Source: an uncultured Gammaproteobacteria bacterium
GTDB taxonomy: Bacteria; Patescibacteriota; Patescibacteriia; SG8-24
Direction of reading: 5' to 3'
NCBI GenBank assembly: GCA_964486995.1
Contig: CAZAOV010000003.1
Span: forward strand, 686 to 64,685
Length of the DNA stretch: 64,000 nucleotides
Shown in pieces: positions 5,532 through 26,931 of this stretch (positions are counted from its first letter, which is position 1; the number at the start of each line of letters is the position of its first letter). The notes below the pieces were generated by a model. The model saw nothing but the letters and a program-made list of their open reading frames with translations, did no database searches and was not told where the DNA came from. A program made the translations under genes and the position numbers.

Positions 5532-5894
5532 GTAATGACCTCCGAATGAGAAACGATACAACACCGCTAAAAAAGAGTCAATGTAAAAAGCTTGAATTCG
5601 AACCCGAAACGTAAGATAAGGCACACAAAATGAAAGCGGCACCTCGCTGGGATAAAATGGTCTTGCAAGATCCAATAACCCGGAGAGAGAATGCCGCACT
5701 CACACATTACATCAGAGGACCGTTCGGTCATGGTCGCCCTGCTCCAAGGCGGCAGAGCTCGCCGCTGCCCGTAGGAACAGGCGCTCCCCAAGCCGGACAG
5801 ATGTGATCTCTGCCGCTACGCGCATACAAACATACAAAAGCCCCATACGAGAACCACAAAACAAAAACCCGGCAAATACTGCCGGGTTGAGAGT

Positions 5895-6758: not shown

Positions 6759-6837
6759 TACTTCCTCCCACCTTCTTAATATATAGAAAGGACATTTAAC
6801 TTAAGCATATTCAGGCGATGTTTTCAACCCCTGACCC

Positions 6838-6904
6838 AAAAACTGTCAGACTTGTTTTAGGAGGGAGACGAAGCCTCCGCCTTAAAACAAGTCTGACAGT
6901 TTTT
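6838..6904. repeat. Palindromic repeat element, copy 1: 22-bp arms AAAAACTGTCAGACTTGTTTTA flank a 22-nt GC-rich centre that is itself a hairpin, with T/A-run flanks
   Basis: Perfect arms read from the sequence. A second copy with a different centre lies at 51133-51200. This copy sits in a divergent promoter region, so it is not simply a terminator. Confidence 0.7.
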
Positions 6905-6935
6905 AAACCTCGGTCGTTCGTGATAAGCTCAAGCC

Positions 6936-8276
6936 ATGAAATCCTTGCTTAAAAAGCTGATTCCAGCTCCGATGCTGGACGTTTATCATAGATTGCTGGC
7001 GCGGGTTGCGGCGGTGCGTTTTGGCTATCCGGCGAATCAGATGATTGTGATTGGCGTGACCGGCACTAACGGCAAATCAACGGTCTGCAACATGATTGCA
7101 CACGTGTTCGAAGGCAGGGGACAAAAGGTTGGCATGACCACCACCGCAAATTTCAAAATAGCGGAGCGTGAATGGCTGAACGACAAGAAGATGACCATGC
7201 TCGGGCGTTTTCAACTGCAGCGGCTGCTGCGGCAGATGGTTGATGCCGGCTGCAAATACGCGGTGATAGAAACTTCGTCCGAGGGGATTCGTCAGCATCG
7301 TCATCGCGGCATCAATTACGATATCGCGGTGTTCACCAATCTTACTCCAGAGCATATCGAATCGCACGGTGGTTTTGAGAACTACAAGAAAGCCAAGGGT
7401 GAATTGTTCGCCAAACTGTCAAAAGACAAGCGCAAGAAAATCGCCGGCTCGGAAGTTCCCAAAACGATCGTAGTAAACGCCATGGACGAGCATGCGCCAT
7501 ATTTCGCGTCGTTCACTGCCGACAACAAAATCGGTTACGTCGTGCCGCACGATAACGATGATACGCCCAAGACCACGGCGGAAACCGACGTGCTGAAAGC
7601 GACAGGCGTTTCCTGTTCCGGCCTTGGTTCAACTTGGGAGGTGGATGGCCAGCAGTTCAAACTAAACCTTCCCGGGCAGTTCAACGTAGAGAATGCCATG
7701 GCTGCAATCGTTGTCGGGCAGGTTCTGGGGCTGAAACTCGCGCAAATTTCTGCGGCCCTCGCCACCTTGCCTGTAGTTCCCGGTCGTCTGGAAAGAGTCG
7801 ACCGGGGTCAGGATTTTACGGCCATCGTTGATTACGCACCCGAGCCGGAGTCTTTTAGAAAATTATACGAAGTGGTTGACCGGTTAGAAAAAAACCGCGT
7901 GATTCATGTGCTGGGTTCGTGTGGCGGCGGTCGTGATGCCAGCCGTCGTCCGGTGCTGGGCGGTCTCGCCGCCGAGAAGGCAGATATTATTATCGTCACA
8001 AACGAAGATCCATACGATGACGACCCGATGGAAATAATTCAGGATGTTGCCGAGGGTGCGCGTCAGCACGGTTTTTGCAATCAGGAAAATCTATACACCA
8101 TAGAAGACAGAGGTGAGGCAATCGATTTCGCGGTGTCGCTCGCTGAGGCCAACGACCTGCTGCTGGTGACCGGTAAGGGTTGCGAGCAGGCCATTGCCAT
8201 CGCGAACGGCAAGAAAATTCCTTGGGATGACCGAAAACGTCTTCAATCCGCGATCGAAGCCAAACTTCATAAATAA
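6936..8276 (+). CDS. Mur ligase family protein, MurE-like (UDP-MurNAc-tripeptide synthetase-like), lacking the usual N-terminal domain
   Basis: GVTGTNGKST P-loop near residue 40. DIAVFTNLTPEHIESHGGFENYKKAK matches MurE DxAVFTNLxxDHLDxHG..E.Y..AK. Length 446 aa. Confidence 0.7.
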   Translation: MKSLLKKLIPAPMLDVYHRLLARVAAVRFGYPANQMIVIGVTGTNGKSTVCNMIAHVFEGRGQKVGMTTTANFKIAEREWLNDKKMTMLGRFQLQRLLRQMVDAGCKYAVIETSSEGIRQHRHRGINYDIAVFTNLTPEHIESHGGFENYKKAKGELFAKLSKDKRKKIAGSEVPKTIVVNAMDEHAPYFASFTADNKIGYVVPHDNDDTPKTTAETDVLKATGVSCSGLGSTWEVDGQQFKLNLPGQFNVENAMAAIVVGQVLGLKLAQISAALATLPVVPGRLERVDRGQDFTAIVDYAPEPESFRKLYEVVDRLEKNRVIHVLGSCGGGRDASRRPVLGGLAAEKADIIIVTNEDPYDDDPMEIIQDVAEGARQHGFCNQENLYTIEDRGEAIDFAVSLAEANDLLLVTGKGCEQAIAIANGKKIPWDDRKRLQSAIEAKLHK

Positions 8277-10575: not shown

Positions 10576-10709
10576 CCGGGGTTATGGCTCTGGGACAGGC
10601 CAAGAGCCTTAACCCCTTTCGGGTGGTTAATTCGTGAGCATTCCACAACAAAAAAGCATAAATATATGTATAATGAGTGTGTGCGATATTGAGAGCGATA
10701 AAGCTAATT

Positions 10710-11858
10710 ATGAATATTTTCTACTTAATCACCCGAGCTGAGCAGGGCGGGGCGCAGACTAAAGTTTTGACGCTCGCCAAGGCTGGTTTGGCACGCGGCC
10801 ACCAGGTGCGGATCGGCACTGGCGAAGGCGGATGGCTAGTGGAGCAGGCCGCGGCGGCCGGGATTCCGACCGTGGTGTTCAAGAATCTCAAGCGCACTTG
10901 GAGTCCGCTGTCTATACGGCCTTTTTTGCGCGAGCTTAAGCAGGAAATAACCGAACGTCCAACTGACGTTCTGCATATGCACAGTTCGAATACGCTGTTC
11001 GCGGCGTATTTGCGTGGTTGTTTGGACGACTTTCGACCAAAAACCATGGCTACGGTTTGCGGTTTGAGCATCATGAATCCGGGCTGGACCGGTAATCCGA
11101 TCAAGAAAGCGCTTTTCAATTTGGTTTCCAAGAAGATGTGGGCGCGATGCGACCACGTTATTTTTGTCTGTCAGTGGGATCGCGATTTCGCGGTGTCGAA
11201 CGGTTATGCGTCCGAGCGTACTTCCAGCGTGGTCTATAATGGCCTGCCGGACGACGTAAGTTATTTTTTGCGTGAAGAGGCGCGTCGTCGGTTGGAAATT
11301 AAAACTGACTGTTCGGAATTTTTGGTCGGCACGGTCGCGCGGCTTGATTATCAGAAAGACGTGGACTTGTTTATCGACATGGCGAACGAACTGCGCGATG
11401 ACGGCATGAAGTTTCGCGTGGTGGGCGCGGGCGAGGATCTAGAGAAGCTGGAGAAAAAAATCAGCGACCTGAACCTGCGCGATATCGTAAGCATAAAAGC
11501 GCAAGCCAAAGACGCGCGCCGCTATATGACCGGTTTCGACGTGTTCGTGCTCACTTCGCGCTATGAGGGTTTTCCGTGGACACTGCTCGAAGCCGAACAG
11601 GCCTGCACGCCCATGGTCAGTATGGACGTGGCCGGCTGTCCGGAGGTGGTTATCGACGGCGAGACCGGTTGGCTGGTTCACGAACGCGACCCGAAAGTTC
11701 TAGCCCGTATGGTGCGCGAGGTACGAGACAATCCGGACCGCGCCGCTCAATATGCGGACAACGCCTATCATCGCGGGCGGCAAATGTTCACGCAAGAAGT
11801 GCTGGTGAACGGCAACTATTCTACCTACGCTAAATTACTCAAAGATGAGAGCGCGTAA
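10710..11858 (+). CDS. Glycosyltransferase family 4
   Basis: SRYEGFPWTLLEAEQACTPMVSMDVAGCPEVV is the GT4 motif. The track ORF starts at 10677; the ATG at 10710 (MNIFYLITRAEQGG) is more likely the true start. Confidence 0.8.
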   Translation: MNIFYLITRAEQGGAQTKVLTLAKAGLARGHQVRIGTGEGGWLVEQAAAAGIPTVVFKNLKRTWSPLSIRPFLRELKQEITERPTDVLHMHSSNTLFAAYLRGCLDDFRPKTMATVCGLSIMNPGWTGNPIKKALFNLVSKKMWARCDHVIFVCQWDRDFAVSNGYASERTSSVVYNGLPDDVSYFLREEARRRLEIKTDCSEFLVGTVARLDYQKDVDLFIDMANELRDDGMKFRVVGAGEDLEKLEKKISDLNLRDIVSIKAQAKDARRYMTGFDVFVLTSRYEGFPWTLLEAEQACTPMVSMDVAGCPEVVIDGETGWLVHERDPKVLARMVREVRDNPDRAAQYADNAYHRGRQMFTQEVLVNGNYSTYAKLLKDESA

Positions 11859-13203
11859 CTTGATTTTATTTTTCGGTGATGTCGTCGCGATGTATGCGGC
11901 CCTGATTTTTGCGCTGGTAATTCGTGGTCGCTGGGATGCGTTGGCCGAGGATGTGCTTACGCACGTGTCGTCGTTCACGGTTTTGTTCTTGGTTTGGCTG
12001 GTGATTCTATACATTAACGATTTTTATTCACGACGACGGTTGCGGGTGGACATGAATTTTGGTCGGTCGTTGTTTAATGCGACATTGGTCAATCTGGGCG
12101 TGGCGGTGATGTTCTTCTATCTGATTGGGCCGTCGCTCGGTATCGCGCCGAAGACCAATTTGTTTTTGGTGGTGGCGTTGTTTGTCGGGTTGTTCCTGCT
12201 TTGGCGCCGCGCCGCGTCGGGCATGATGGTGAGCGACCGCAGTCGAAAGTCGGTGCTGTTTTTGGAGCCGGATCATCTGGGCGAGACGCTCATCAACCAA
12301 ATGGCGACCGACACGGCAGTTCCGTATCGCGCCGAAGGCGTGGTGCGGGCGAGCGGTGACGCGTCCGGCGTGCCGCATACTGTTCCCGTGCATTCTGACG
12401 TACAAAAAACGCACCACATCGCCAACCAGCTCGGGGTGGAGACCGTGGTCATCGGCAACACCTCGTACACCGATTTGCACCGCCAGCTGTATCGTCTCAC
12501 GTTGAACGGTTCGACCGTGGTGGATGCGGCATCGTTTTGGGAGGAGATAAATCGAGAGATTCCGATTTTTGTTATCGATACGCCGTGGTTGGTAAACAAC
12601 TTCGGCGATATGCATAAGCGCGAGTTTGAAATTCTCAAAAGGTTCCGAGACCTGCTCGGTGCGCTTGCTATTGGCGGTGCGTTGTCGGGATTAATTGTCG
12701 TCGTAGCCGTTGCCGTGCGTTTAAGCAGTTCGGGTCCGGTGTTTTTCCGCCAGACTCGCGTGGGCAAGGACGGTCGGCATTTCACTTTGGTGAAGTTCCG
12801 CACCATGCGCGAAGACGCGGAAAAAGACGGGCCGCAGTGGTCGGTCAAAGACGATAACCGCGTGACATCAGTTGGTAAAATTTTGCGGCATACTCATCTG
12901 GACGAGATACCGCAACTTTGGAATATTATCTGCGGCGACATGTCGTTTATCGGTCCACGTCCGGAACGTCCGGTGTTTGTCGAACAGCTTGAAGAGCAGA
13001 TTCCATACTATTCGATTCGTCACTTGGTGCGCCCGGGCGTGTCCGGTTGGGCGCAGATTAATTATCGCTACGGTGCATCGGTGGAGGATTCGGCTCGAAA
13101 ACTGGCATATGACCTCTACTACATCAAACGCCGTAATCATTTGTTGGATATAAAAATTGGACTTAAGACCGCGGCCACGGTTTTCCGCGGTGAAGGCAGA
13201 TAA
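11845..13203 (+). CDS. Polyprenyl-phosphate glycosyl-1-phosphate transferase (WbaP/bacterial sugar transferase family), initiating enzyme
   Basis: FRQTRVGKDGRHFTLVKFRTMREDAEKDGPQWSVKDDNRVTSVGKILRHTHLDEIPQLWNIICGDMSFIGPRPERP is the signature C-terminal domain. N-terminal TM helices. Confidence 0.85.
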   Translation: MRARNLILFFGDVVAMYAALIFALVIRGRWDALAEDVLTHVSSFTVLFLVWLVILYINDFYSRRRLRVDMNFGRSLFNATLVNLGVAVMFFYLIGPSLGIAPKTNLFLVVALFVGLFLLWRRAASGMMVSDRSRKSVLFLEPDHLGETLINQMATDTAVPYRAEGVVRASGDASGVPHTVPVHSDVQKTHHIANQLGVETVVIGNTSYTDLHRQLYRLTLNGSTVVDAASFWEEINREIPIFVIDTPWLVNNFGDMHKREFEILKRFRDLLGALAIGGALSGLIVVVAVAVRLSSSGPVFFRQTRVGKDGRHFTLVKFRTMREDAEKDGPQWSVKDDNRVTSVGKILRHTHLDEIPQLWNIICGDMSFIGPRPERPVFVEQLEEQIPYYSIRHLVRPGVSGWAQINYRYGASVEDSARKLAYDLYYIKRRNHLLDIKIGLKTAATVFRGEGR

Positions 13204-13208
13204 TAACT

Positions 13209-15494
13209 ATGGGAAAAAAACAGCGCAGAAAAAAACGCGCGTTAGTGCAGGCATCGTTCGAGCGCTATCCGTTTTTGTTTAAGCTGATTGGCTGGCTGGC
13301 GGTATTGTCGTTGGCCGTGCCGCTGCTGAAGCGACCGCATGCCTACTTAGCTTCGTACTACACGCAGTTTACGGTGATGCAGATTTTGATTGAAGTGATG
13401 TTTGCGTGCTGGCTGATACTGGCGATTAAAGACCGGCGCTTCCGCCCGGATTGGCGAAGTCCAGCGTTGTGGGGCTTGCTGGCGTTTATCGGCACCATGC
13501 TCTTGGCGCTGCCGTTTGCGGTTGACCCAGCATATTCTTTTTGGTCGCGGCCGACGCGCATGACCGGTGTGATTAACTACCTGCACTATGGAGCGTGGCT
13601 GTTTGTGCTGTTGGCGACCTTCAAAAAACCGGAGCAGTATCGCAAGCTGTTGATTGCAACGTCCATAGTATCCATCGTGATCGGGTTGATAGGTTTCGCG
13701 GATTGGTGGGTCAATCCGGGGAGTACGGTGCAGTCCTATTTGGGTAACCCGTCGTTTTTCGGCGTGTACATGCTGCTTCATGCCCTAATTGGCGTGTATC
13801 TGCTGGCCGGAACCAAGACTGTTAAGTCGCGAATATTACCGGTGGTCACGATTGTCGTTGCGGTGGTATCAGTGTTTCTGTCCGGAAGTCGCGGTGCGGT
13901 TCTGACGCTGTTCGCTTCTGTTGTGATTGGGGCAATTATCTATTTTTTGTATTCAAAGACCTATCGACCAGTCAAAATATCCGTAATAGTTGCGCTTTTG
14001 GTTTTGGCAATTTCCGCCGTTGCCGGATTCGCACTGCTGCGGTCGGACAGCATGCGCGGCTGGGTGGATGAGCATCTGTCCGGTCCCACGCATCGTCTGA
14101 TCACCCGCGATTTCGGCAGTGACCGTTGGGTGCTTTGGAACTACGGTTGGCGAGGCGTGCTGGAGCGACCGTTATTCGGTTGGGGTATGGAACAATACGA
14201 GGTGTCGTTCTATAAGCATTACGATCCGCTCACTGAGGATGTGGAAATAATGAACGAGCAGTATGCGGATCGCGCGCATAATCAATATCTTGACGTGCTG
14301 ATTGCTTCTGGATTCTTCGGTTTGGTCGGTTATCTGGCGTTCTTGTTGTTGTTATTGCATTCAGCCTGGACAGCAGTCAGGAAATCGGAAAACTCTATCG
14401 CGCTGTTAAAAAATTCCGCCCTGTCCGCAGCCGTGCTCGCTTACTGCGGTTACGGACTGATTATGTTTGATACGCCCATGGCAGTGATGGTGTCGTTTTT
14501 GGCCTATGGAGTAATCGCGGCTAATTATCGAAAGGTGTGCGGGCCTGCTGAGCCGGAAGCCGAGCTGATAATATCCAATAATTCTTTAGCGCTGGCCGCA
14601 CCAATTTTGGTCATGATGTTTGTGGTGGTGCTGTTGGTGAATGTCATGCCAGCCGTAAAAATTTGGCAGACAGAGGAGGCCGTGAAACTCACCGACACCA
14701 ATCGCACGGCCGCGCTAGAGCAGTATAAAATCGCAACCACCGGATACAATCCTTATGCGCTTGATTTGCGGTTGCGCCTGCTCACCAAAATAAAAAAATG
14801 GTCAGAGAACGTATCACTGCAATCGTCGCAGTTGCAAAAGTTGGTTGAATATACGGTGCCACTCATGGAAGACGCGGCGACAAAACGATCCTATAACATG
14901 CGTTTCCAGTTGGCGGCGGCCGCGATGTTTAGGATTTTTGGCGACTACAATCCGGCGGCCTACGCCATAGCCGAGGAATATGCGCAGACAGTTATACAGA
15001 CCGCACCCGGCAGGCCTGAGGCATATATCGAGCAGGGTGAAATCGATATTACGCAGAATGATGCTGATTCAGCGATTCTATACCTAATGAAGGCAATAGA
15101 GCGGGTGCCAATCAAAAACAGGCATGTCAGTCGGTATATCTATTTCCGACTCGCGAGCGCATATGCGCTAAAGTGTGACCATCAAGAATCAAAGAAGAAC
15201 TTTGATATTGCGGCTGAATACGGCCATCCGCATCATAAAGACACGCGGTTCTTGCTTGATTTGGATCGCGGCTGTCGGTCGGACCGGGATTTTTCCTGGG
15301 TCGCCGATCATGTCGATCAGTTGCTGGTGGTGTATCCCGACCATCCCCGAGTTCTGCCGGCCGCCGCGCGCATATATATGCTCTCCGAACAGCCAGACAA
15401 AGCCGTGGAGATGGTCGAAAGATTAGATAAGAGAGACCCAGGTTCTGCCAGACAGCTAGCCGAAGAACTCGAATTAATTAACGAGGAGGAATAA
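13209..15494 (+). CDS. O-antigen ligase/polymerase (Wzy_C) domain membrane protein with C-terminal TPR-like repeats (paralog 1 of 4)
   Basis: Multi-TM N-terminal half with SGSRGAVLTLFASV and HNQYLDVLIASGFFGLVGYLAFL (WaaL/Wzy_C-like). C-terminal helical repeats. Lys-rich N-terminus. Confidence 0.7.
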   Translation: MGKKQRRKKRALVQASFERYPFLFKLIGWLAVLSLAVPLLKRPHAYLASYYTQFTVMQILIEVMFACWLILAIKDRRFRPDWRSPALWGLLAFIGTMLLALPFAVDPAYSFWSRPTRMTGVINYLHYGAWLFVLLATFKKPEQYRKLLIATSIVSIVIGLIGFADWWVNPGSTVQSYLGNPSFFGVYMLLHALIGVYLLAGTKTVKSRILPVVTIVVAVVSVFLSGSRGAVLTLFASVVIGAIIYFLYSKTYRPVKISVIVALLVLAISAVAGFALLRSDSMRGWVDEHLSGPTHRLITRDFGSDRWVLWNYGWRGVLERPLFGWGMEQYEVSFYKHYDPLTEDVEIMNEQYADRAHNQYLDVLIASGFFGLVGYLAFLLLLLHSAWTAVRKSENSIALLKNSALSAAVLAYCGYGLIMFDTPMAVMVSFLAYGVIAANYRKVCGPAEPEAELIISNNSLALAAPILVMMFVVVLLVNVMPAVKIWQTEEAVKLTDTNRTAALEQYKIATTGYNPYALDLRLRLLTKIKKWSENVSLQSSQLQKLVEYTVPLMEDAATKRSYNMRFQLAAAAMFRIFGDYNPAAYAIAEEYAQTVIQTAPGRPEAYIEQGEIDITQNDADSAILYLMKAIERVPIKNRHVSRYIYFRLASAYALKCDHQESKKNFDIAAEYGHPHHKDTRFLLDLDRGCRSDRDFSWVADHVDQLLVVYPDHPRVLPAAARIYMLSEQPDKAVEMVERLDKRDPGSARQLAEELELINEEE

Positions 15495-15495
15495 A

Positions 15496-17742
15496 GTGAC
15501 AGCGATGGGAAAGAAGAAACGCAACAAAAAAAACCTGGCTAATCAAGCTGCGACCAAGAAGAACGACGAGCAACCGTCAATGTTGCCGGCGCTGATATTC
15601 TTTTGCGGATTGCTGGCTTTGGTCGCTCCATTGCTGCCGTCTTCAGCGCCGTCCATACCGGTCACTCTGACACAGGCCTCAGTGTTTCAGGCATTGGTCG
15701 CTGTTATGGTCGCCGCGTGGATTCCGTTGGCGATTACTGATAGGCGCTATCGGCCGCATTGGGGACTGCTTACGTTCGCAGTGCTCGGCTACGGCGTCAT
15801 GATTTTGGTGTCGCTGGCGTTTAGTGCCGACGGAGATCTGTCGTTCTGGTCGCAGCTGTGGCGCATGACCGGTGTTTGGAACATGCTGCATTACGTGGCT
15901 TGGTTTGTTGTGTTGGCGTCGGTAATGAAGAGTCACAAGGATTGGCGGATATTTTTGGCGATAAGTTGCGCGTTTGCCTTATATGCCAGCCTGTACGGAT
16001 TAAAGCAATGGCTCGCCAGTCCGATGTCGGCTAGCGTGCGTTCAACGCTCGGCAATCAGTCATTACTGGCGGCGTACGTGTTACCGCATATTTTTATCGC
16101 TTGGTATTTGAATATCGCTAACCGTGCTTGGTCTAAGTATTTTTATTACACGGTGATGGTCGCATGTTCGGCCACGATAATTGTTTCTGCCAGTCGTGGG
16201 GCGGTGTTGGCCTGGGTGATTAGTGTCGCACTCGCCGTAGCGGCGCTCGTCGCTTTATCTAAGTGGCCGAGAAAGCGGCGGTTGGCGTTGGTCAGTCTGA
16301 TAATTACGTTACCGGTTCTGGCTATCGGTGCGGTACTGTTAATGCGCACGCCGGTTGCCAAAGAAGTGGTTACTTCGAACATAAGGGTACCGCGTTTTTT
16401 CAGTCGTGTGGTTTATCGCGATATCGGCGAGGACCGCAAGCTGCTTTGGTCTTACGCTTGGCGCGGATTCACGGAGCGACCCGTGTACGGATGGGGTAAC
16501 GAGATGTACGGCTATTTGTACGACTATTATTTTGACCATACCGGGGAAGATATCGTGATTTTCAATGAGCGCTGGCAAGACCGAGCGCATAATCAGTATC
16601 TGGATATTCTGGTTTCGTACGGTGTCATAGGAATGCTGTCGGTAATTCTGATTTGGTTCGCGGTCGGCAGGAAGCTGTGGCTGGCGTTTCGGGCGACCGA
16701 TGAGCGTACGGAAAAAAAGAGGTTGGCCATGCTGGCGGTATTTAGTGTTTGCTACCTGACTTATGTGCTGACCATTTTTGACACGCCGGCACAGTTAACC
16801 GTAGTTTTTGCGGTACTGGCCTTAATTGCGACTCTTTCTGTTGATGAGAAACATGATGAGCGGCTGACAAAAACAAACACCAGATTGCGTTTGGCAATTC
16901 TAGCTGTCTGCATTCCAATATCGCTGTATGTGATTTGGCTCAACATGGCGCCGGTGGTTCGGGCGGCAGCGGTGCATGAAGGGCTGATTGCCATTCGTTC
17001 AGATCGGCAGGACATGCGCGCGACTTTTTCCGGGGCGTTCAAGTGGCCCAACGCTTACGTTCACGGCATGCGGTACGCGGCCATATTTGAGGTGCAGAAG
17101 TATATGGAGCTTGCACAGTTGAATTCCGCAGATATGCACGATGGTCTTGAGTATCTAGTCGAGCAGGCGGTCGATTCGGCTGAAGATCGGCCGCTGACGT
17201 CAAGATACCTAATTGGTGCCAGTACAGCTCTGCGACTGCTGGCCATGCACGAGCCAGAGAAACTTGATGACGCCGAGATGTACGCGCAGAAAATTATCGA
17301 TTTGATGCCGAACCGGTTTGACGGTTATGCCGAAATGGCCGAGATCAATATTTTGCGAGGCGAATTCCAGGAGGCGATTGCACAGCTCAAGAAAGCCGAA
17401 GAACGCGTTTATGCCAGGCGCAGAGATTTACAATCCAGAATCTACATGCTGATGGCAACCGCGTACGCCGGATTGGGGCAGATTGATCGGGTGGTCGAAT
17501 GCACCCAAAAAGCCGGCGAGTTGGATCAGAACGCGTTCTTCGATTCTCGGTTGGCGATTATTCTGTCAAAGAATATTCAATTCGGTGACAACATCGTCGG
17601 CTTGGACGGATACCTAAACATATTGCAGAGCCGCTATTCGCAGGTTTCGCCGGTTATGCAGGCTGTGGCAAAGATTATTCAGGCTGGCTCCAGCACGTCA
17701 GTCGATGTTGGAACCACATCCTTAGATGAGTCAGCTAACTAA
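15496..17742 (+). CDS. O-antigen ligase (Wzy_C)-TPR membrane protein (paralog 2 of 4)
   Basis: Aligns along its length with paralog 1 (SASRGAVLAWVISV; HNQYLDILVSYGVIGMLSVILIW). GGAGGA RBS 5 nt before GTG(15496). ATG at 15505 is an alternative start. Confidence 0.7.
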   Translation: MTAMGKKKRNKKNLANQAATKKNDEQPSMLPALIFFCGLLALVAPLLPSSAPSIPVTLTQASVFQALVAVMVAAWIPLAITDRRYRPHWGLLTFAVLGYGVMILVSLAFSADGDLSFWSQLWRMTGVWNMLHYVAWFVVLASVMKSHKDWRIFLAISCAFALYASLYGLKQWLASPMSASVRSTLGNQSLLAAYVLPHIFIAWYLNIANRAWSKYFYYTVMVACSATIIVSASRGAVLAWVISVALAVAALVALSKWPRKRRLALVSLIITLPVLAIGAVLLMRTPVAKEVVTSNIRVPRFFSRVVYRDIGEDRKLLWSYAWRGFTERPVYGWGNEMYGYLYDYYFDHTGEDIVIFNERWQDRAHNQYLDILVSYGVIGMLSVILIWFAVGRKLWLAFRATDERTEKKRLAMLAVFSVCYLTYVLTIFDTPAQLTVVFAVLALIATLSVDEKHDERLTKTNTRLRLAILAVCIPISLYVIWLNMAPVVRAAAVHEGLIAIRSDRQDMRATFSGAFKWPNAYVHGMRYAAIFEVQKYMELAQLNSADMHDGLEYLVEQAVDSAEDRPLTSRYLIGASTALRLLAMHEPEKLDDAEMYAQKIIDLMPNRFDGYAEMAEINILRGEFQEAIAQLKKAEERVYARRRDLQSRIYMLMATAYAGLGQIDRVVECTQKAGELDQNAFFDSRLAIILSKNIQFGDNIVGLDGYLNILQSRYSQVSPVMQAVAKIIQAGSSTSVDVGTTSLDESAN

Positions 17743-17748
17743 ATAAAT

Positions 17749-20043
17749 ATGAGCAAGAAGAAACGACGACAAAAAGCAGTGTCGAATAAGCATTGGCTGT
17801 CGTGGCTGATTTACATTTGCGCATTGCTCGCTGTAGCCACGCCCCTGCTGTCGCCGTACTGGCCGCTGATTAATTACACCCAGATTAAAACTTTCACTTT
17901 TCAGGCACTGGTCGAGATAATGTTCGTGGCTTGGGTCGTCTTGGCGGTGGCGGACAAGCGCTATCGTCCACGCCGGAACGCCTTGTCAATAACGTTGCTG
18001 CTGTTTATGGGCGCGGTGCTCGCTTCCTTACCTTTCAGCATTGATTCATCGCTGTCGTTTTGGCATATCAGCAATCGCATGACCGGAGTGGTGACTTTGC
18101 TGCATATGGCAGCTTGGTTTTTTGTTCTAGCAAATTCGCTGCATCACCGTGACGAATGGATTAAGCTGTTTAAGATAAGCGGGCTGATTTGTTACGCCAT
18201 CTTAGCGGTTGATTTGGTGGTCTGGTCGGGCAATACGCAAACTTCGGCCATGAAAAAAATATTTGGCAACTCGTTCTACATGATTTCCTATGTCATGCCG
18301 CACGTGTTTCTTGGTCTATATCTGTGGCTACGAGAAAAAACCCATAAAAAATATTTTTGGCTTTCCTTGTCTGTGGTGGCGTCGGTGGCGATTGTATTGA
18401 CGGGAAGCCGTTCTGGAATTCTGGCGTTGATAATTTCGGTGTTCATAGCCGTGCTATGCCTGACGTTGATTTCAGACAAAAGCCGGGGGAAGCGAGCGCT
18501 GATAGTGGTCTTGAGTACGGTCCTTACGCTAGCCGCGGTCGGAGGTTTTTTTGGCTTGCGCACAGAAGCCGGTCGAAATTGGGTTGCTGAAGCCAGTTAT
18601 GTCCCAGGCGCATTTCATCGCATGGCTCACCGAGATTTTGGCGGCGATCGGCTGGCGTTATGGAATATGGCGCTCAAAGGTATAGCCGAACGACCGATTT
18701 TCGGTTGGGGCAATCTGCAGTTCCTGCACGTATCTTCGAAGTATCTGGATATCGACAGCAGTGCCCTAGAGGTACTGAACGAAAGCTGGCAGGACTCCTC
18801 GCACAATCAGTATTTGGATCATTTGATGCATTACGGTGTAGTTGGTTTTACGGCGTATTTGGCGATGTGGATTGGTGTGCTGGTGTTGTTGATCCGCACG
18901 TATCGTCGTGCGGAATCGCTGAACGACAAGCGCAGCTTGCTGTTGGTCGGGGTACTGTTCGTTAATTATCTTATATATACGGTGTTTATTTTTGATACAC
19001 CACAGATGCTGATGCTGATGTTTATGATGTTTGCTTGGCTGGTGTTTATGCGAACTGGGCAGCTCCAGACCGAAGATCAGGATATTCTGGTCGGTAATCC
19101 CTCGGTAACGCTGTTCATGGTTTTGTTGATACCCATGTTGATGTTCTGCTGGTTTGCTAACGGCCAGCATTACGTCGCACAAAAACATTGGATTGCCGGA
19201 GCCGCTGCGGTAAGCGGCGGCAACTGGACTAAAGCGGCGGATGAATTTGGTCAGGCATATGGAAATACATCCAATCCGTACATATACGAGCTGCGCACTT
19301 TTGCTATGGAGCCGACCAGGAATTCCGTCGATTATTATTTTTCTGGCGGTCAGGAGAACGAAGAGGGGATTGACCTGTATCTGAAGACAATGGCTGATGC
19401 CACGACCGCCAATGTGGATGATCATCCGACTAACCCCAAAGCACTCTTCTTGGCTGGGCAGACACATCGGTATTTATACAAAGTAGACGATGCCGCCTGG
19501 CAGCAATCATATGATTACGTTCAGCGGTATCTGGAGATGGCGCCTGATAGATTTGACGCACACCTGCAGATGGCCGAGCTGAATGCCTTACGCGGCAATT
19601 ATGAAGAGGCCCACAAATGGTTCGATTCCGCTTACGAGCGACATTTTCGACTTTCAAGGCAATACGGCGGATTCATTCTGTATCGAAAAGCCTGCATCTA
19701 CGCTCGTCAGCGAAATTTTTCCGCGTTGGCCGAGACTATCTCGAAAAGCGCCAAGGTTTTTCCTGGCCATAAAGATGCGCGCTTAATTCTGATAATGGGA
19801 GAGGTGGTGCAAGAAGGTGATAACTTGAGCGGTTTTGAACCGTTCCTTGATCTTGCCATGACTCATTTTCAGCATGATGTAGAAGTGTTGACCGCTGGTG
19901 CGCGGCTGTATCATGTGCTGGGTCATAACGACATGGTTAGTCAGGTTCTCGAAGTTCCGGCCATGGTGGAATGGGGCAATTCCGAGGAAGGACGGGGACA
20001 ATATGATGCCCTAAAGAGAGAATTGGGCTACATTGAGTGGTAA
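17749..20043 (+). CDS. O-antigen ligase (Wzy_C)-TPR membrane protein (paralog 3 of 4)
   Basis: TGSRSGILALIISV; HNQYLDHLMHYGVVGFTAYLAMW; C-terminal RFDAHLQMAELNALRGNYEEAHKWF TPR-like repeat. Confidence 0.7.
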   Translation: MSKKKRRQKAVSNKHWLSWLIYICALLAVATPLLSPYWPLINYTQIKTFTFQALVEIMFVAWVVLAVADKRYRPRRNALSITLLLFMGAVLASLPFSIDSSLSFWHISNRMTGVVTLLHMAAWFFVLANSLHHRDEWIKLFKISGLICYAILAVDLVVWSGNTQTSAMKKIFGNSFYMISYVMPHVFLGLYLWLREKTHKKYFWLSLSVVASVAIVLTGSRSGILALIISVFIAVLCLTLISDKSRGKRALIVVLSTVLTLAAVGGFFGLRTEAGRNWVAEASYVPGAFHRMAHRDFGGDRLALWNMALKGIAERPIFGWGNLQFLHVSSKYLDIDSSALEVLNESWQDSSHNQYLDHLMHYGVVGFTAYLAMWIGVLVLLIRTYRRAESLNDKRSLLLVGVLFVNYLIYTVFIFDTPQMLMLMFMMFAWLVFMRTGQLQTEDQDILVGNPSVTLFMVLLIPMLMFCWFANGQHYVAQKHWIAGAAAVSGGNWTKAADEFGQAYGNTSNPYIYELRTFAMEPTRNSVDYYFSGGQENEEGIDLYLKTMADATTANVDDHPTNPKALFLAGQTHRYLYKVDDAAWQQSYDYVQRYLEMAPDRFDAHLQMAELNALRGNYEEAHKWFDSAYERHFRLSRQYGGFILYRKACIYARQRNFSALAETISKSAKVFPGHKDARLILIMGEVVQEGDNLSGFEPFLDLAMTHFQHDVEVLTAGARLYHVLGHNDMVSQVLEVPAMVEWGNSEEGRGQYDALKRELGYIEW

Positions 20044-20089
20044 GAATAACTTGTTGATGACATGCCGAAGTTATGCCGAAGCGTGTTAA

Positions 20090-22336
20090 GTGAGTACAAC
20101 TATGGTTTACGCAAATAATAAAATCGCCTCTTGGATGCTTTTGGCAGTCGTAGTCAGTATTGCTGCCATAATTGTGGCCGTGCCGTTATTGCCGGCCTGG
20201 ACTAGTTACACAACCTGTATTTTTTCCGAGGCGACTTTTTTTCAAATCGCGGTGGAGGTGATGCTGGCAGCATGGATACCGCTGGCCTTAGCCACACCAA
20301 GGTTTCGACCGCGTCGAAGTTGGCTTACCGGGGCGGTTGTATTTTACGCCGTCGTTATGATGGCATCTTTGTTTTTTGCGGTTGATCCATCTCTGTCAGC
20401 CTGGTCAAAAGTCACTCGCATGACCGGTGTCATCAATATGCTGCATATTGTTGGCTGGTTTTTGGTCTTGTCTTCCTCGCTGCGCGGCATCAGACAGTGG
20501 CGTTTTCTGCTCACTGCCAGCGTCGTTGTCAGCACCCTAATCAGCATAATCGCCATTATCGAAGGTGTGGCCGGATCAGGTCCTGTTGTGGCTACCATGT
20601 GCAACCAATCATTTTTGGCCGCTTATCTTCTGCCTCATGTGGGGATTGCAATGTTTTTGCTGTTCAGGGAGAAGCAATGGTTCTTTCGTGTAGCTCTATT
20701 GACCACCTCGACCATTCTGCATCTGATTGCGATGTATTTTTCTGCCAGTCGGTCGGGCATGCTGGCGTCACTTATTTTGGTGGCATCGTTCTTGGTGGTG
20801 TTGGTAGCTAGAACAAAGTTTAAGGCGCATAACAGGCGCTTTCTTGTCGCCCTGATTATTATTGCGTTTTGTGCGGTCATCGGGGCGGTCATCGGGCTAC
20901 GTTATTTGTCGGCCGTGGGTAAGTTGGACGCAAATCTGCCTCGACCCGTCAGCCGTCTGGTGCTGAAGGATTTTGGTGATGACCGGTTAGTTTTATGGAC
21001 ATATGCTTGGCGCGGTTTTATGGAGCGGCCCATATTCGGCTGGGGTAACGAACAGTTCAGCACGCTTTATAGCCAGCACTACAACCCGGCCGGTTTGGAT
21101 AAATACGTGTTTAATGAACGATGGCAGGATCGAGCGCATAATCAGTATCTAGATTCACTGGTGTCTTATGGAATTTTCGGGTTTTTGGCCTTTGTATTGA
21201 TTTGGGCGCTGGCCATTAAGCGGGTGCGTTCGTTGTATCGTGATGACGTGCTGGATGTTTATCAGTCATCGATGCTGATGTCGGTGTTTGTGGCGTTGAT
21301 GCTGTTTTACGCGTTCAATTTTGATACGCCGGCCGCGCTTATCGTAATTTACATGTTGTTTGCGTTCTGCGTTGGGGTCAGTCCGCCGCGCCGCGACGAT
21401 CGATTGTTCCATTCGGCTATGTTGGGTGCGGCGTTGATTACCATCAGTTTTGCCGTTGTGGGAATTAGGTTCATAAATGTGGTTCCGGCCATGAGCATGA
21501 AGACTTTCAGCGAAGCCGAGTCAACAATTTTGACCGATGGCATGAAATCGTTCGAAAAATATAGCGTGGCGCTGAAGGGTGTCGGCCCATACAGAAATGA
21601 TTTTAGGCTCAACCACCTGTTTGCCATCCAAAAATATGTCGATCACGCCGGAATGCGCGGTATGCCCCTGGAAACTCTAGTCCGTCAGGCAGTGCATGAA
21701 ACCAAAGATATGGTCGGTGATGCGCCGTACGACTATCGATCGCATTTGGCTAATGCGGTAGCTAATCGGCTAATGGCAGAGTTCGGCGAAGACACCATTC
21801 AAACCGCAAAGGTCAGCGCGCAAAAGGCTCTTGAGTTGGCGCCGACGCGATTTGACGCTCACTTTGAGTTGGGTGAGATTAGTTTAGCTGCGCGGAATTA
21901 TAGACAGTCCGAGCATCATTTTATGCGTGCCATTGAGTATTCTTATTGGAATTTGGCCGGTTTTGATGAATTGGTCTATTATCGCTTAGCTCAGCTGTAC
22001 GTTGAGCAAGGTGATTATGCTATGGCTCGGGAGTGGTTGGCACGCAGTCAGGCGGGTGCGGCATATCCGGCCACTCAAGATGCCAGACTGGTCATGGCCA
22101 TGGATAACCTGTTGGAGACGGATCAGGCCGCATCTGCATTTGCGTTCACATCTTATGTTGATGCGACATTGAATAATTTTATCGTTCATCCGGAGTTGCA
22201 CGCCGCTGCGGCAAGGTATTATGCGGCATTGGGCAACAAGAATCGTGCCGCTCAAATCGTAAATGGCATGGTCGCCACTACACCCGCTTTGGCTCGGCAG
22301 TTGGTAGAAGAATTGGACTTGCCGTTTACTGAATAA
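20090..22336 (+). CDS. O-antigen ligase (Wzy_C)-TPR membrane protein (paralog 4 of 4)
   Basis: SASRSGMLASLILV; HNQYLDSLVSYGIFGFLAFVLIW; C-terminal RFDAHFELGEISLAARNYRQSEHHF. Confidence 0.7.
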   Translation: MSTTMVYANNKIASWMLLAVVVSIAAIIVAVPLLPAWTSYTTCIFSEATFFQIAVEVMLAAWIPLALATPRFRPRRSWLTGAVVFYAVVMMASLFFAVDPSLSAWSKVTRMTGVINMLHIVGWFLVLSSSLRGIRQWRFLLTASVVVSTLISIIAIIEGVAGSGPVVATMCNQSFLAAYLLPHVGIAMFLLFREKQWFFRVALLTTSTILHLIAMYFSASRSGMLASLILVASFLVVLVARTKFKAHNRRFLVALIIIAFCAVIGAVIGLRYLSAVGKLDANLPRPVSRLVLKDFGDDRLVLWTYAWRGFMERPIFGWGNEQFSTLYSQHYNPAGLDKYVFNERWQDRAHNQYLDSLVSYGIFGFLAFVLIWALAIKRVRSLYRDDVLDVYQSSMLMSVFVALMLFYAFNFDTPAALIVIYMLFAFCVGVSPPRRDDRLFHSAMLGAALITISFAVVGIRFINVVPAMSMKTFSEAESTILTDGMKSFEKYSVALKGVGPYRNDFRLNHLFAIQKYVDHAGMRGMPLETLVRQAVHETKDMVGDAPYDYRSHLANAVANRLMAEFGEDTIQTAKVSAQKALELAPTRFDAHFELGEISLAARNYRQSEHHFMRAIEYSYWNLAGFDELVYYRLAQLYVEQGDYAMAREWLARSQAGAAYPATQDARLVMAMDNLLETDQAASAFAFTSYVDATLNNFIVHPELHAAAARYYAALGNKNRAAQIVNGMVATTPALARQLVEELDLPFTE

Positions 22337-22354
22337 TTGCTAGACAAATGACCA

Positions 22355-22386
22355 AAACACCCCATCTGCTGATGGGGTGTTTTGGT
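22355..22386 (+). terminator. Rho-independent terminator of the ligase array
   Basis: acacccca-tctgctga-tggggtgt followed by TTTT. Confidence 0.7.
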
Positions 22387-22417
22387 CGCATTCCGCTCCA
22401 AGTCTCTGCTTCCTGAT

Positions 22418-22487
22418 GCGCGGGACAAGGTAGACAGACGCCTGCCCACCTTGTCCCGCGCACCGAAGCCGGATACTTGGAACGGGA
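22418..22487 (-). repeat. Conserved 3' trailer after tRNA-Thr (about 50 nt shared with the tRNA-Gly trailer), containing a 14-bp perfect hairpin gcgcgggacaaggt/accttgtcccgcgc
   Basis: 22438-22487 matches 22635-22684 with 2 mismatches. The hairpin at 22418-22461 was read directly from the sequence. Confidence 0.6.
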
Positions 22488-22563
22488 TGGAGCCACCTCG
22501 CGGATTCGAACCGCGGACCTCTGCTTTACGAAAGCATTGCTCTACCGACTGAGCTAAGGTGGC
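22488..22563 (-). tRNA. tRNA-Thr (anticodon CGU), CCA encoded
   Basis: Reverse complement GCCACCTTAGCTCAGTCGGTAGAGCAATGCTTTCGTAAAGCAGAGGTCCGCGGTTCGAATCCGCGAGGTGGCTCCA folds as a cloverleaf. Anticodon loop TTCGTAA; GTTCGAATC T-loop. Confidence 0.85.
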
Positions 22564-22620
22564 ATGATAACGGCTGTATCGCATCTCGCTCCGGGTTTCT
22601 GTCGCTTGTGTCTTGCAGGA

Positions 22621-22684
22621 CACAGGGTGGATAAACGCCTGCCCACCTTGTCCCGCGCACCGAAGCCCGATACTCGGAACGGGA
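22621..22684 (-). repeat. Conserved 3' trailer after tRNA-Gly (second copy of the trailer element), with a degenerate hairpin
   Basis: acgcctgcccaccttgtcccgcgcaccgaagcccgatactcggaacgggatgg is near-identical to the copy after tRNA-Thr. Confidence 0.6.
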
Positions 22685-22758
22685 TGGAGCGGGGTACGGG
22701 AATCGAACCCGCGTTATTTGCTTGGGAAGCAGACGTACTACCATTGTACTAACCCCGC
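22685..22758 (-). tRNA. tRNA-Gly (anticodon CCC), CCA encoded
   Basis: Reverse complement GCGGGGTTAGTACAATGGTAGTACGTCTGCTTCCCAAGCAGATAACGCGGGTTCGATTCCCGTACCCCGCTCCA. Anticodon stem TCTGC/GCAGA, loop TTCCCAA. Confidence 0.85.
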
Positions 22759-24451: not shown

Positions 24452-25195
24452 ATGTTCTGGTCTGGGAGGAAAAAGATAAAGTCCGATGCGTCGGTTCTTT
24501 TTATTTTTATCGCGGCGGTAGGTACTTTGATTTTAGCCACTGCAGTTTTAGAAATCAGCTCGGTCAAACGAACTGTCGTTGAGGAAAAAGCGCCGGTGCC
24601 GTTGATGAACAATGATTCATCTTTACCAGAAGGGATTATAGATTCAGCTCGACGAATGGATATAGAGTTATTGGCGGAACCGGCTACCGTTTTGGCCTAT
24701 CGTCAGAACGGCCGTCAGATGTTGGGTCTGATGAAGTGGGACCGGCGTTCTGGGAAGAATGCTCTAAAAACGGAAATCGTATTGCATGGCACGATGAATC
24801 AGGCTGAACTGCCAGAGCTGTCGGTTAAAAAATATGGCTGGAGTCAGGATTTAGAGGTTGAGTTGCGCTGGTCCGCGGCGAACAGCGATCTCGACGTGCT
24901 GACTCATGTAATGGTTGATGGAACGCAATTGAAACAGCTCAAGATTGAACGTGCAGACGGCATCAGTCGGTACGAATTGTTTGAGGAGGGGGATACCGTA
25001 CTCGGCGAAACGTCTATAGAGATAAAAGATATGGATAACGATGGTGTGGCTGAACTACTTGCCGAGACGATCGATTCATACGGCAATCGCGTGGTTGACG
25101 TCTATCTGTGGGCTGGAGATCGGTTAGCCTGGAACGAAAGCTGGAGCAGAGCCATGACAGCGAGAGACGGTCTGTTTCCGGAGCCAGGAGAATAG
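24452..25195 (+). CDS. Hypothetical membrane-anchored protein, cotranscribed with ftsEX
   Basis: Start 3 nt after the ftsX stop. N-terminal TM helix. No recognised motif. Confidence 0.5.
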   Translation: MFWSGRKKIKSDASVLFIFIAAVGTLILATAVLEISSVKRTVVEEKAPVPLMNNDSSLPEGIIDSARRMDIELLAEPATVLAYRQNGRQMLGLMKWDRRSGKNALKTEIVLHGTMNQAELPELSVKKYGWSQDLEVELRWSAANSDLDVLTHVMVDGTQLKQLKIERADGISRYELFEEGDTVLGETSIEIKDMDNDGVAELLAETIDSYGNRVVDVYLWAGDRLAWNESWSRAMTARDGLFPEPGE

Positions 25196-25207
25196 CAAAA
25201 AATAGAA

Positions 25208-25235
25208 AAACAGCACCGATCGGTGCTGTTTTTGG
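25208..25235 (+). terminator. Rho-independent terminator
   Basis: aacagcaccg-atc-ggtgctgtt followed by TTTTT. Confidence 0.8.
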
Positions 25236-25270
25236 TTGTAAGGTGGCTGGCCAGCGAAATCTCAACCCAA

Positions 25271-25531
25271 TTATTTTATGAGCTTCAAATGCGGGGCGTC
25301 ATCAATTGGATAATGGCTGCCCACTTGTCTGATCGGCGTTCTGAAATGCAAGTGAATGATTTTACCGCTTTCGCCCAGGACGCGTTGGCAGATTGGACAA
25401 AATTTATCTGCGTTTCTCGTACCCACTGAATACGAACCGTCGAGATGTTGAAAAGTGAAGACCTTACCTTCTGGGTGCTTTTTGTTTCTTAGTTTTAGCT
25501 GGGCACCGCTGAGCAGTTCAAGTAGCGTCAT
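25271..25531 (-). CDS. Hypothetical small protein (86 aa)
   Basis: Clean ORF between a terminator and tRNA-Gln. No recognisable domain. Weak support. Confidence 0.2.
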   Translation of the reverse strand: MTLLELLSGAQLKLRNKKHPEGKVFTFQHLDGSYSVGTRNADKFCPICQRVLGESGKIIHLHFRTPIRQVGSHYPIDDAPHLKLIK

Positions 25532-25630
25532 TTTTTTTTCGCGCTAAAGGATGTCTCCCCCAAACCCCCTGTTCGAATCCTGGTTTTAGTTGTTGGGACA
25601 AAAAACCACCCTTCGCGGACGGTTAGTTGA

Positions 25631-25704
25631 TGGTTCGGGGACCAGGATTCGAACCTGGATTGACGGCTTCAAAGGCCGCTGTCCTACCATTGGACGATCC
25701 CCGA
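25631..25704 (-). tRNA. tRNA-Gln (anticodon UUG), CCA encoded
   Basis: Reverse complement TCGGGGATCGTCCAATGGTAGGACAGCGGCCTTTGAAGCCGTCAATCCAGGTTCGAATCCTGGTCCCCGAACCA. Anticodon loop CTTTGAA. Confidence 0.85.
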
Positions 25705-25908
25705 ATGCATGAAGTTGGAAATTTACCGATTATTCGGCGCAGGAGTTCTTTATTTGTCACCTGCCTGCCTTCCGCAGCCTTGGCGGAGGCGGGGACGACC
25801 CCCCAAATTAGTGCGTTAGCAGTTTACTTGATGAAAACAATCTAGGCAAGGACTCGGACTCCGTTGGCGATGGTGATATAATAACCACAGATTAATTAAA
25901 GCATTATT

Positions 25909-26439
25909 ATGGTGTCCGGAATAATAGTTCGATTTACAGCAGCCGCCTTTCTCCTGTTCAACATGATCATATTTATCGCTTCGGCTATTCGGTCCGTGCG
26001 GAGCCTGATGGCGCCGTCGGAAGACGAAAATATGATGTTTTCGGTAGTGTTTATGCTGTTGTCGTTGGTGTTTGCGGTCTGGGTGTGGGGGATGCTGAGC
26101 AAGGTATTCAAGAAGGATTGGCCTCGCAAATCGTTCATTCATATCAAGACCGATTGGCGTAAATATGTCGCCACGGTGCTGGTGCTAATAGGTCTGGTGT
26201 TGTTGTTCGGTTCGCCCATCGGGTTCTATGCGAGCATCGGGTACATGGCCGGTTCGCAGTTTGCCCAATTGGCGCAACAAGAATTCGCCGGACTGCTTGG
26301 TTTGGAATTGCCTGAACTCTTACTGAAATCGGTGGCTTGGACATTTCAATGGAATTTTGCCTCATTCATGGCGGGGTTCTGCATATGGATTTATTCGGCC
26401 ATAGCAGGTGCGATGACGCAGAGCAAGGCCTTCAAGTAA
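25909..26439 (+). CDS. Hypothetical integral membrane protein (4-5 TM)
   Basis: Hydrophobic segments throughout. Followed by a terminator at 26453-26480 (aaccgcttt..aaagcggtt+TTTT). Confidence 0.5.
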   Translation: MVSGIIVRFTAAAFLLFNMIIFIASAIRSVRSLMAPSEDENMMFSVVFMLLSLVFAVWVWGMLSKVFKKDWPRKSFIHIKTDWRKYVATVLVLIGLVLLFGSPIGFYASIGYMAGSQFAQLAQQEFAGLLGLELPELLLKSVAWTFQWNFASFMAGFCIWIYSAIAGAMTQSKAFK

Positions 26440-26485
26440 CGTTGACGCAAAGAAAAACCGCTTTTTGAAAGCGGTTTTATTGTTG

Positions 26486-26845: not shown

Positions 26846-26931
26846 GTTACCTCCAAAGCAAGTCACCCGAAAGTATAGCGGGCTAATGGATTAATGCAAT
26901 AGAAAACCACCCTCAACGGGTGGTGGCTGCG

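Follow-up and report, generated by a model that had tools for sequence, protein, structure and literature searches.

An ordered array of four divergent Wzy_C-TPR transferases behind a single initiating enzyme in a Patescibacteria glycan locus

The window analysed here is a 64,000-nt stretch of contig CAZAOV010000003.1, which derives from a metagenome-assembled genome (MAG) of the Patescibacteria (Candidate Phyla Radiation); the closest database proteins come from MAGs named "Patescibacteria group bacterium". Its + strand is filled from 10677 to 22336 by six open reading frames (ORFs) encoding a GT4-family glycosyltransferase, a polyprenyl glycosylphosphotransferase (PGT) and four consecutive proteins of 748–764 residues (paralogs A, B, C and D), all at the positions given by an initial annotation of this DNA. 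Paralogs A–D belong to the Wzy_C/O-antigen-ligase-like superfamily (WaaL fold). We read the locus, with a probability of about 0.45, as an operon that would produce a short lipid-linked glycan, to be moved en bloc by four specialised WsfB/PglL-like transferases, whose acceptors would most probably be proteins. Neither the enzyme type nor the Wzy_C-TPR architecture, which is abundant, is new; the novelty is that, in one clade of Patescibacteria, as many as four ancient paralogs follow one PGT and one GT4 in a conserved array of fixed order. Since the architecture is abundant and already labelled in databases, the value of the locus lies in this multi-paralog arrangement and not in a new mechanism. 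The observations of the initial annotation are confirmed, and its interpretation is partly supported.

The proposed fusion of a Wzy_C/WaaL-like core to a TPR domain was borne out for all four proteins by Pfam searches. Wzy_C (PF04932) covers residues ∼208–383 with E-values of 1e-16 to 9e-21 (61–75 bits, cut-off 31.7), which also disposes of the possibility that the transmembrane (TM) core belongs to an unrelated family, and TPR-family matches are present at the C-terminus of each. The paralogs align end to end, as had been noted, with 27–30% amino-acid identity. Their nucleotide identity over aligned codons is 42–46% (32–36% at third positions, which are saturated), and the longest DNA repeats among them span the conserved motifs (50–96 nt, 61–75% identity). 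Thus, a recent duplication or an assembly artefact, for which near-identity of the copies would have spoken, is excluded, in agreement with the earlier view that the divergence is high. The motifs quoted in the initial annotation are present, with deviations in paralog C: the Ser-Arg pair is invariant, with C having TGSRS instead of S(G/A)SR, and HNQYLD is invariant, with the following (V/I) position being Met in C. Lys/Arg-rich N-termini were also found as described, with 7–8 Lys and Arg residues preceding TM1 in A, B and C compared to 1 in D.

Matches of the four paralogs to NCBIfam models were all below threshold. The exosortase-associated O-glycosylation ligase (TIGR03097; 44.9 and 32.6 bits, cut-off 188.1) and the IctB-type bicarbonate transporter (TIGR00947; 38.4 and 35.2 bits, cut-off 366.4) were rejected as identities on these scores. 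The third such model, TIGR04370 ("oligosaccharide repeat unit polymerase"), reached 22.7 and 18.6 bits, with its cut-off at 40.

AlphaFold2 models of two paralogs are of high confidence, with a predicted local distance difference test score (pLDDT) of 93.7 and a predicted template-modelling score (pTM) of 0.91 for A, and 91.5 and 0.90, respectively, for D. In both, the chain crosses the membrane in 13 helices, with TM9 and TM10 joined by a helical loop of ∼85 residues, and ends in ∼14 helices arranged in TPR-like pairs. In paralog A, the TM helices are predicted to occupy residues 1–∼480, with an external catalytic loop at ∼278–362 and an external TPR domain at ∼481–761. The predicted structure is thus that of a WaaL-like multi-TM fold with a large external TM9-TM10 loop, in which the 13th TM helix is followed by an extracytoplasmic C-terminal domain, as in proteins of the WsfB/PglL/PglS type. 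In a Foldseek search with paralog D, WaaL (7tpg_B) was the sole match other than TPR-repeat proteins among the top 50 matches listed. When a profile built from the TM core of 25 homologs was searched against PDB sequences, only two chains were found at E<0.1, namely 9rmk_A, deposited as "Oligosaccharyltransferase" (5.6e-13), and WaaL 7tpg_B (1.6e-11); the third match, a lysozyme at E 0.15, is noise. From its THSHN motif, we take 9rmk_A to be a Neisseria PglL, which the depositors' name does not say.

The putative catalytic base of paralog A, His357 in the motif DRAHNQYLD, is invariant in alignments of 4, 17, 25 and 42 sequences, and its equivalents in B, C and D are His365, His352 and His350. 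R228, R306 and H357 are invariant across A–D; across the 25 homologs, R306 and H357 remain invariant and R228 is at least 90% conserved. SR228, R306/W310, FGWG and H357-N358 pair with GTRGAV, vRLkiW, TGVG and AHN of WaaL 7tpg_B and with SR, pRQIEW, FGHG and SHN (His349 of THSHN) of 9rmk_A. Alignment to E. coli WaaL with hhalign likewise pairs R306 with R288 and H357 with the HN motif, at E 0.007 over the catalytic loop, compared to E ∼0.17 for WzyE and the O16 polymerase WbbH, to which only 38–45 columns outside the catalytic loop align; with individual E. coli sequences as targets, hhalign assigns low probabilities (5.5% for WaaL), such that these alignments serve only for residue pairing and for the non-alignment of the polymerases. 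This His has been reported as a requirement in Wzy_C enzymes (PMC9829042). As the catalytic Arg/Arg/His set is kept in A–D, all four copies are probably catalytically competent.

Hydropathy and charge indicate a cytoplasmic, Lys/Arg-rich N-terminus, 13 TM segments and positively charged even-numbered loops. Because the catalytic residues sit in the TM9-TM10 loop, this loop must face outward, as in WaaL and, with four further helices following it, the TPR domain would also lie outside. The positive-inside rule and the WaaL-anchored topology together therefore predict that both the catalytic loop and the TPR tail are extracytoplasmic. This topology and the high pTM would place the TPR domain beside the active site, where it could plausibly contact the acceptor, possibly with a cleft geometry over the active site.

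The arrangement extends to related genomes. Five related contigs share a neighbourhood consisting of murE, a bPH-domain gene, divIC, a PrsA/SurA-like peptidyl-prolyl isomerase gene, sometimes a GT2 gene, GT4, PGT, the Wzy_C-TPR genes, ftsE, ftsX and a conserved hypothetical gene. Three Wzy_C-TPR copies are present in L001, L002 and L006, and two in L005. L003 and L004, two independent assemblies of a related organism, have one copy and a C-type pseudogene in 3–4 frameshift fragments (L003 12314–14539, L004 3566–5792) that is on its way to loss. L025 contains two copies followed by an LtaS-like sulfatase-family gene (13950–16154), which occupies the position of the third paralog ahead of ftsEX, and the short contig L027 contains the same pair and sulfatase gene (5409–7604). 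The LtaS-like membrane protein (731–734 aa) reaches 80 bits with the model for LTA synthase, far short of the cut-off.

A neighbour-joining tree with 100 bootstraps resolved orthogroups A, B and C with 99–100% support (100% for B and C), and the order A-B-C is kept, with positional orthologs, in L001, L002 and L006. Paralog D groups only with P0008 (100% bootstrap, 51% identity), the one close ortholog retrieved in a search with D. P0008 is encoded on a separate metagenome contig (L024) directly after a C-type gene, so the C-D order recurs. Based on the orthogroups and their conserved order across genomes, the duplications are older than the divergence of these genomes, with the order kept and copies lost in some lineages. 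Orthologs of A–D share 36–62% identity, compared to 86–92% for FtsE and 62–79% for the PGT of the same genomes, and, within the locus, the Wzy_C-TPR genes belong to those that evolve faster.

More distant Patescibacteria (Saccharibacteria, Paceibacteria and Wildermuthbacteria) have single copies in other contexts. All three of the distant homologs inspected adjoin sugar-biosynthesis or glycosyltransferase genes: a nonulosonic-acid cluster, a cluster with Wzx and dTDP-sugar/GT4 genes, and a stretch with a GT2 gene. The family as a whole is large, as an exhaustive profile search returned 9,725 Wzy_C-TPR cluster representatives at E≤1e-30; lengths among the top 150 are 679–845 aa, and almost all of these cover nearly the whole profile. 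In databases, such proteins already carry the labels "O-antigen ligase/TPR repeat protein" or "O-antigen ligase family protein". A separate set of proteins of ∼1050 aa from Logan/ENA assemblies, outside the window (P0075, P0087, P0092, P0093 and P0097–P0100), contains MurJ/MATE/Polysacc_synt_3 domains in addition to Wzy_C, and would represent flippase-ligase or flippase-polymerase fusions.

Conservation is unevenly distributed along the paralogs. Between them, identity is highest in the catalytic loop (41–57%) and lowest in the TPR domain (17–27%), while within orthogroups the TPR domain is 33–55% identical, near the value for the whole protein. This pattern would fit a common donor and chemistry combined with different partners. 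Positions fixed within an orthogroup and differing between orthogroups make up 2–6% of columns in any region. They are rare everywhere, provide no positive sequence signal for paralog-specific acceptor pockets, and speak neither for nor against acceptor specialisation. Thus, of the earlier suggestion that the TPR domain might select the acceptor, contact is made plausible by the outside location beside the active site, and a conserved-position signal specific to each paralog is lacking.

The two genes preceding the array encode recognisable glycan-building enzymes. The PGT matches Bac_transf (PF02397, 7e-63) and passes TIGR03025, the model for exopolysaccharide polyprenyl glycosylphosphotransferases, with 348.5 bits over residues 11–451 (cut-off 295.6). 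It falls below the cut-offs of the more specific NCBIfam models for WbaP (185 vs 403) and WcaJ (291 vs 411); the earlier label "WbaP-like" was therefore too specific. By these profile matches, the protein is classified as a large polyprenyl glycosylphosphotransferase of WbaP/WcaJ architecture. The GT4 matches Glycos_transf_1 (4e-32) and Glyco_transf_4 (6e-18), with no NCBIfam equivalog above cut-off, and would add the second sugar onto the lipid-linked primer. Its orthologs in relatives share 40–66% identity.

Spacings between consecutive genes from GT4 to D are −14, 5, 1, 6 and 46 nt, the 3′ end of GT4 and the start of PGT sharing 14 nt. The initial annotation had ended the locus at 22386, which coincides with a hairpin (22350–22387) just past D; beyond it are two convergent tRNA genes, and then ftsE. 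Given the tight spacings, the hairpin after D and the convergent tRNA genes beyond, the six genes most likely form a single operon, and the hairpin is likely a bidirectional terminator serving both the operon and the tRNA genes.

In the pathway that we propose, the PGT would load a sugar-1-phosphate on polyprenyl phosphate at the inner membrane face, and the GT4 would lengthen this primer into a short oligosaccharide. A flippase encoded elsewhere would turn the lipid-linked glycan outward. Each WaaL/PglL-type enzyme would then bind the polyprenyl-PP-glycan via its conserved Arg residues, and the conserved His of the outer TM9-TM10 loop would drive en bloc transfer to a hydroxyl group on an acceptor that the TPR domain would hold outside the cytoplasm. 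The four copies most likely differ in the acceptors that they modify, which would most probably be secreted or surface proteins; the enzymes would then be O-oligosaccharyltransferases (O-OTases) like WsfB and PglL. The gene content, operon packing, fold, catalytic residues, outside position of the TPR domain, and the age and kept order of the paralogs underlie this scheme, to which the lipid carrier, glycan size, flippase, nature of the acceptor and specialisation of the four copies are added by inference.

TPR domains usually bind proteins, which is one reason to favour protein acceptors. The described systems provide others. WsfB, the S-layer O-OTase of the monoderm Paenibacillus alvei, and PglL both combine Wzy_C with a C-terminal TPR motif (PMC2943079); they are the only described Wzy_C enzymes with such a tail that were found, and both glycosylate proteins. 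The wsfB cluster also includes the same kind of initiation enzyme, a Gal-1-P transferase (PMC2943079). WsfB and WsaB (Geobacillus stearothermophilus) further resemble the present system in having Wzy_C (the TPR motif being described for WsfB), in their monoderm-type hosts, and in a gene cluster that also encodes glycosyltransferases and an initiating sugar-1-phosphate transferase (PMC2943079); WsfB is likened to A–D by description of its architecture and not by sequence. In contrast, they are single genes beside an S-layer gene, whereas here up to four diverged copies occur with no recognisable S-layer gene.

PglL, PglS, TfpO and TfpM of Neisseria, Acinetobacter and Moraxella share the Wzy_C core with its essential His (PMC9829042). 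PglS is described as spanning the membrane with 13 helices, and its C-terminal domain lies in the periplasm, where it forms a cleft above the active site (PMC12800693); 9rmk_A is the best PDB sequence match to the paralogs, with H357 aligned to its H349. These enzymes differ in coming from diderm proteobacteria and in aligning only over the catalytic core. They are also shorter at the C-terminus or overall: the C-terminal domain of PglS comprises residues 438–548 of 548 (PMC12800693), compared to a TPR domain of ∼280 aa here, and the 9rmk_A chain has 610 residues, compared to 748–764. A tandem array of four such enzymes is not described for this group.

A looser parallel is offered by TMTC1–4, components of a eukaryotic O-mannosylation pathway of the endoplasmic reticulum (PMC7801869), which follow the same logic and lend further weight to protein acceptors. 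The analogy, for which no homology is claimed, consists in four paralogs of 741–915 aa with a multi-TM GT-C core, an odd TM count, a cytoplasmic N-terminus and a C-terminal TPR domain on the luminal side that bears the catalytic loop (PMC7801869). TMTC1–4 differ in belonging to another GT-C clade (PMT-like, 11 TM helices) and in transferring a single mannose instead of an oligosaccharide en bloc.

Several observations weigh against protein O-glycosylation. In the PDB search, the scores for an O-OTase and a ligase are too close to discriminate between the two (51.5 bits for 9rmk_A vs 46.8 bits for WaaL 7tpg_B), and the sole solved fold compared, WaaL, is that of a lipid-acceptor enzyme. The type IV prepilin motif G[FMYW][TSA][LI][IVLM]E is absent from all ORFs of the window, which also contains no recognisable S-layer gene. 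No Pfam family for Wzx, MurJ or Wzz was found among 49 window ORFs scanned, which include all those of at least 400 aa; the initial annotation had likewise noted that Wzx and Wzz are absent. The 486-aa product of 52874–54334, the only large window protein without a family match, was considered as a flippase and rejected on account of its single TM helix. Orthogroup-specific positions account for only 2% of TPR columns, with no excess over the rest of the protein. Finally, the LtaS-like gene within the array of two relatives, and the wall and division genes that surround the locus, would be equally compatible with glycoproteins and with a polymer of the wall or membrane.

A stronger form of the protein reading, in which the array is a battery of acceptor-specialised O-OTases fed by one minimal glycan pathway, with the TPR domains recruiting different surface proteins, is possible and rather doubtful. 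Candidate acceptors under it would be pilins, S-layer subunits or giant Ser/Thr-rich fibres. The window encodes one such large protein of 2573 aa (54665–62386), which has an N-terminal hydrophobic segment, is rich in Gly, Ser and Thr (35%), and ends with a coiled coil and a Peptidase_S74 domain (endosialidase-type intramolecular chaperone). The gene before it encodes the 486-aa protein, with a Lys-rich N-terminus, one TM helix and a Gly/Tyr-rich ectodomain, for which neither Pfam nor NCBIfam gave a match. Both proteins are candidate surface fibres and possible glycosylation acceptors.

Alternatively, the four enzymes could be ligases acting on non-protein acceptors, such as a membrane glycolipid or the cell wall, with the TPR domain docking wall or division machinery. 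We regard this as unlikely, though it is the most probable of the rival readings. In its favour, WaaL is the best structural match, the locus is flanked by murE, divIC and a prsA-like gene and by ftsEX in all relatives, an LtaS-like gene is part of the array in two of them, and a GT4 and a CDP-alcohol phosphatidyltransferase are encoded 5–9 kb upstream. A precedent exists in TacL, the lipoteichoic acid ligase of Streptococcus pneumoniae, a Wzy_C enzyme of 397 aa that passes a polyprenyl-PP-linked polymer to a glycolipid acceptor on the outward-facing side of the membrane in a monoderm (PMC5727136). By description, TacL differs from A–D in this shorter length, in the glycolipid acceptor and in having no TPR domain. 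Similarly, WaaL, as represented by the Cupriavidus metallidurans structures (7TPG/7TPJ) and the E. coli enzyme, has a chain of 413 residues in 7tpg_B, aligns only over the TM core without a counterpart of the TPR domain, and uses lipid A-core as its acceptor. Both are thus too short to accommodate a TPR domain of ∼280 aa, and the only described Wzy_C enzymes found with such a tail modify proteins. Moreover, four different lipid or wall acceptors would be needed, of which there is no hint, and where a genome is very small, gene neighbourhood says little about function. Identity with WaaL itself, as a ligase of lipopolysaccharide O-antigen, was rejected: no WaaL-specific NCBIfam model matches the paralogs at E≤0.01, no lpx or waa genes are present within the window, and the host is a member of the Patescibacteria, which are not known to have an outer membrane or lipopolysaccharide.

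It is less probable still that the paralogs are Wzy-type polymerases that join lipid-linked repeat units and differ in linkage or in the partner bound by the TPR domain. Wzy_C of Pfam does include polymerases, the weak TIGR04370 matches point in this direction, and a distant single-copy homolog (L028) adjoins a Wzx flippase in a sugar cluster without another Wzy candidate. Against this, the invariant Arg/Arg/His set is that of ligase-type enzymes, the TM-core profile retrieves PglL-type and WaaL chains and no polymerase from the PDB, and the hhalign comparison favours E. coli WaaL over WzyE and WbbH. No polymerase model is matched above its cut-off, no Wzx or Wzz partner is encoded in the window, and a single PGT and GT4 would yield at most one repeat unit, for which four polymerases are not called for. 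Lastly, that the array is a redundant or decaying duplication, or an artefact, without division of labour is highly improbable and already largely refuted, since its variable copy number among relatives (one plus a pseudogene, 2, 3 or 4), the frameshifted C-type copy of L003/L004 and the rarity of the D type are outweighed by the nucleotide divergence with saturated third positions, the retention of each orthogroup in order across genomes with FtsE 86–92% identical, the invariance of all catalytic residues and the confident folding of both modelled copies.

Protein glycosylation thus remains our preferred reading, and its interest lies partly in the host. The cell surface of Patescibacteria mediates attachment to host bacteria. 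Their glycosylation is essentially unexplored, and in the literature found no glycosylation system has been characterised for this group. A literature search for "O-antigen ligase" in Patescibacteria or Saccharibacteria retrieved nothing relevant, and a study of Saccharibacteria pili calls for glycosylation there to be examined (PMC11623550). As a system, the locus is compact and testable, comprising two genes for glycan building and as many as four transferases whose catalytic residues are intact. If the array does act as a battery with different protein acceptors, gain, loss and fast divergence of copies would retune the glycosylated episymbiont surface that faces hosts and phages. The array would then parallel, in bacteria, the four TMTC enzymes of eukaryotes, and would be the first glycosylation system to be defined in Patescibacteria.

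Table 1. Genes, catalytic histidine codons and hairpin of the glycan locus (window coordinates).
Feature	Position	Strand	Basis
GT4-family glycosyltransferase	10677..11858	+	Pfam Glycos_transf_1, Glyco_transf_4
Large polyprenyl-phosphate sugar-1-phosphate transferase (initiating PGT, WbaP/WcaJ architecture)	11845..13203	+	Pfam Bac_transf, TIGR03025
Paralog A, 761 aa, WaaL/PglL-type transferase	13209..15494	+	
Putative catalytic base His357 codon, paralog A	14277..14279	+	Alignments
Paralog B, 748 aa, architecture as A	15496..17742	+	Wzy_C 1.1e-16, TPR matches, colinear alignment
Equivalent His365 codon, paralog B	16588–16590	+	
Paralog C, 764 aa, architecture as A	17749..20043	+	Wzy_C 8.8e-21, TPR matches
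Equivalent His352 codon, paralog C	18802–18804	+	
Paralog D, 748 aa, architecture as A, without Lys-rich N-terminus	20090..22336	+	Wzy_C 7.2e-21, TPR_19/TPR_17
Equivalent His350 codon, paralog D	21137–21139	+	
Perfect 17-bp hairpin, 14 nt past the D stop codon	22350..22387	.	Terminator-like scan and sequence

Past the end of the operon, the two tRNA genes are tRNA-Thr(cgt) (22488–22563) and tRNA-Gly(ccc) (22685–22758), both on the minus strand. A direct repeat of ∼95 nt (86% identity; 22396–22500 and 22596–22696) lies immediately 3′ of each and carries a 12-bp inverted repeat (GCGGGACAAGGT...ACCTTGTCCCGC); Rfam gave only a sub-threshold chance match at this repeat. Further downstream, the gene at 24452–25195 encodes a conserved hypothetical protein of 247 aa with an N-terminal TM helix and no family match. 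It always follows ftsX in relatives, with only 35–40% identity, and may be a divisome partner of FtsEX.

The gene order of the adjoining stretch (25200–27800) is unlike that of L001 or L002. It contains tRNA-Gln(ttg) (25631–25704, minus strand) and two paralogous small minus-strand ORFs (26486–26866 and 26932–27201) that share the C-terminal motif GF(S/N)EDQAMQLLL(K/R)(Y/W)G. An insertion-sequence-type transposase with HTH_38 and an rve integrase core is encoded at 30321–31322, within a stretch (30001–32000) that has 60% GC compared to ∼50% in the rest of the window and is probably an insertion. Near the start of the window, two adjacent genes for TrmB-family regulators (3051–3803 and 3808–4584) lie downstream of a second GT4 (1841–2962) and adjoin the divergent CDP-alcohol phosphatidyltransferase gene; this tandem pair is kept in L002 and L003.

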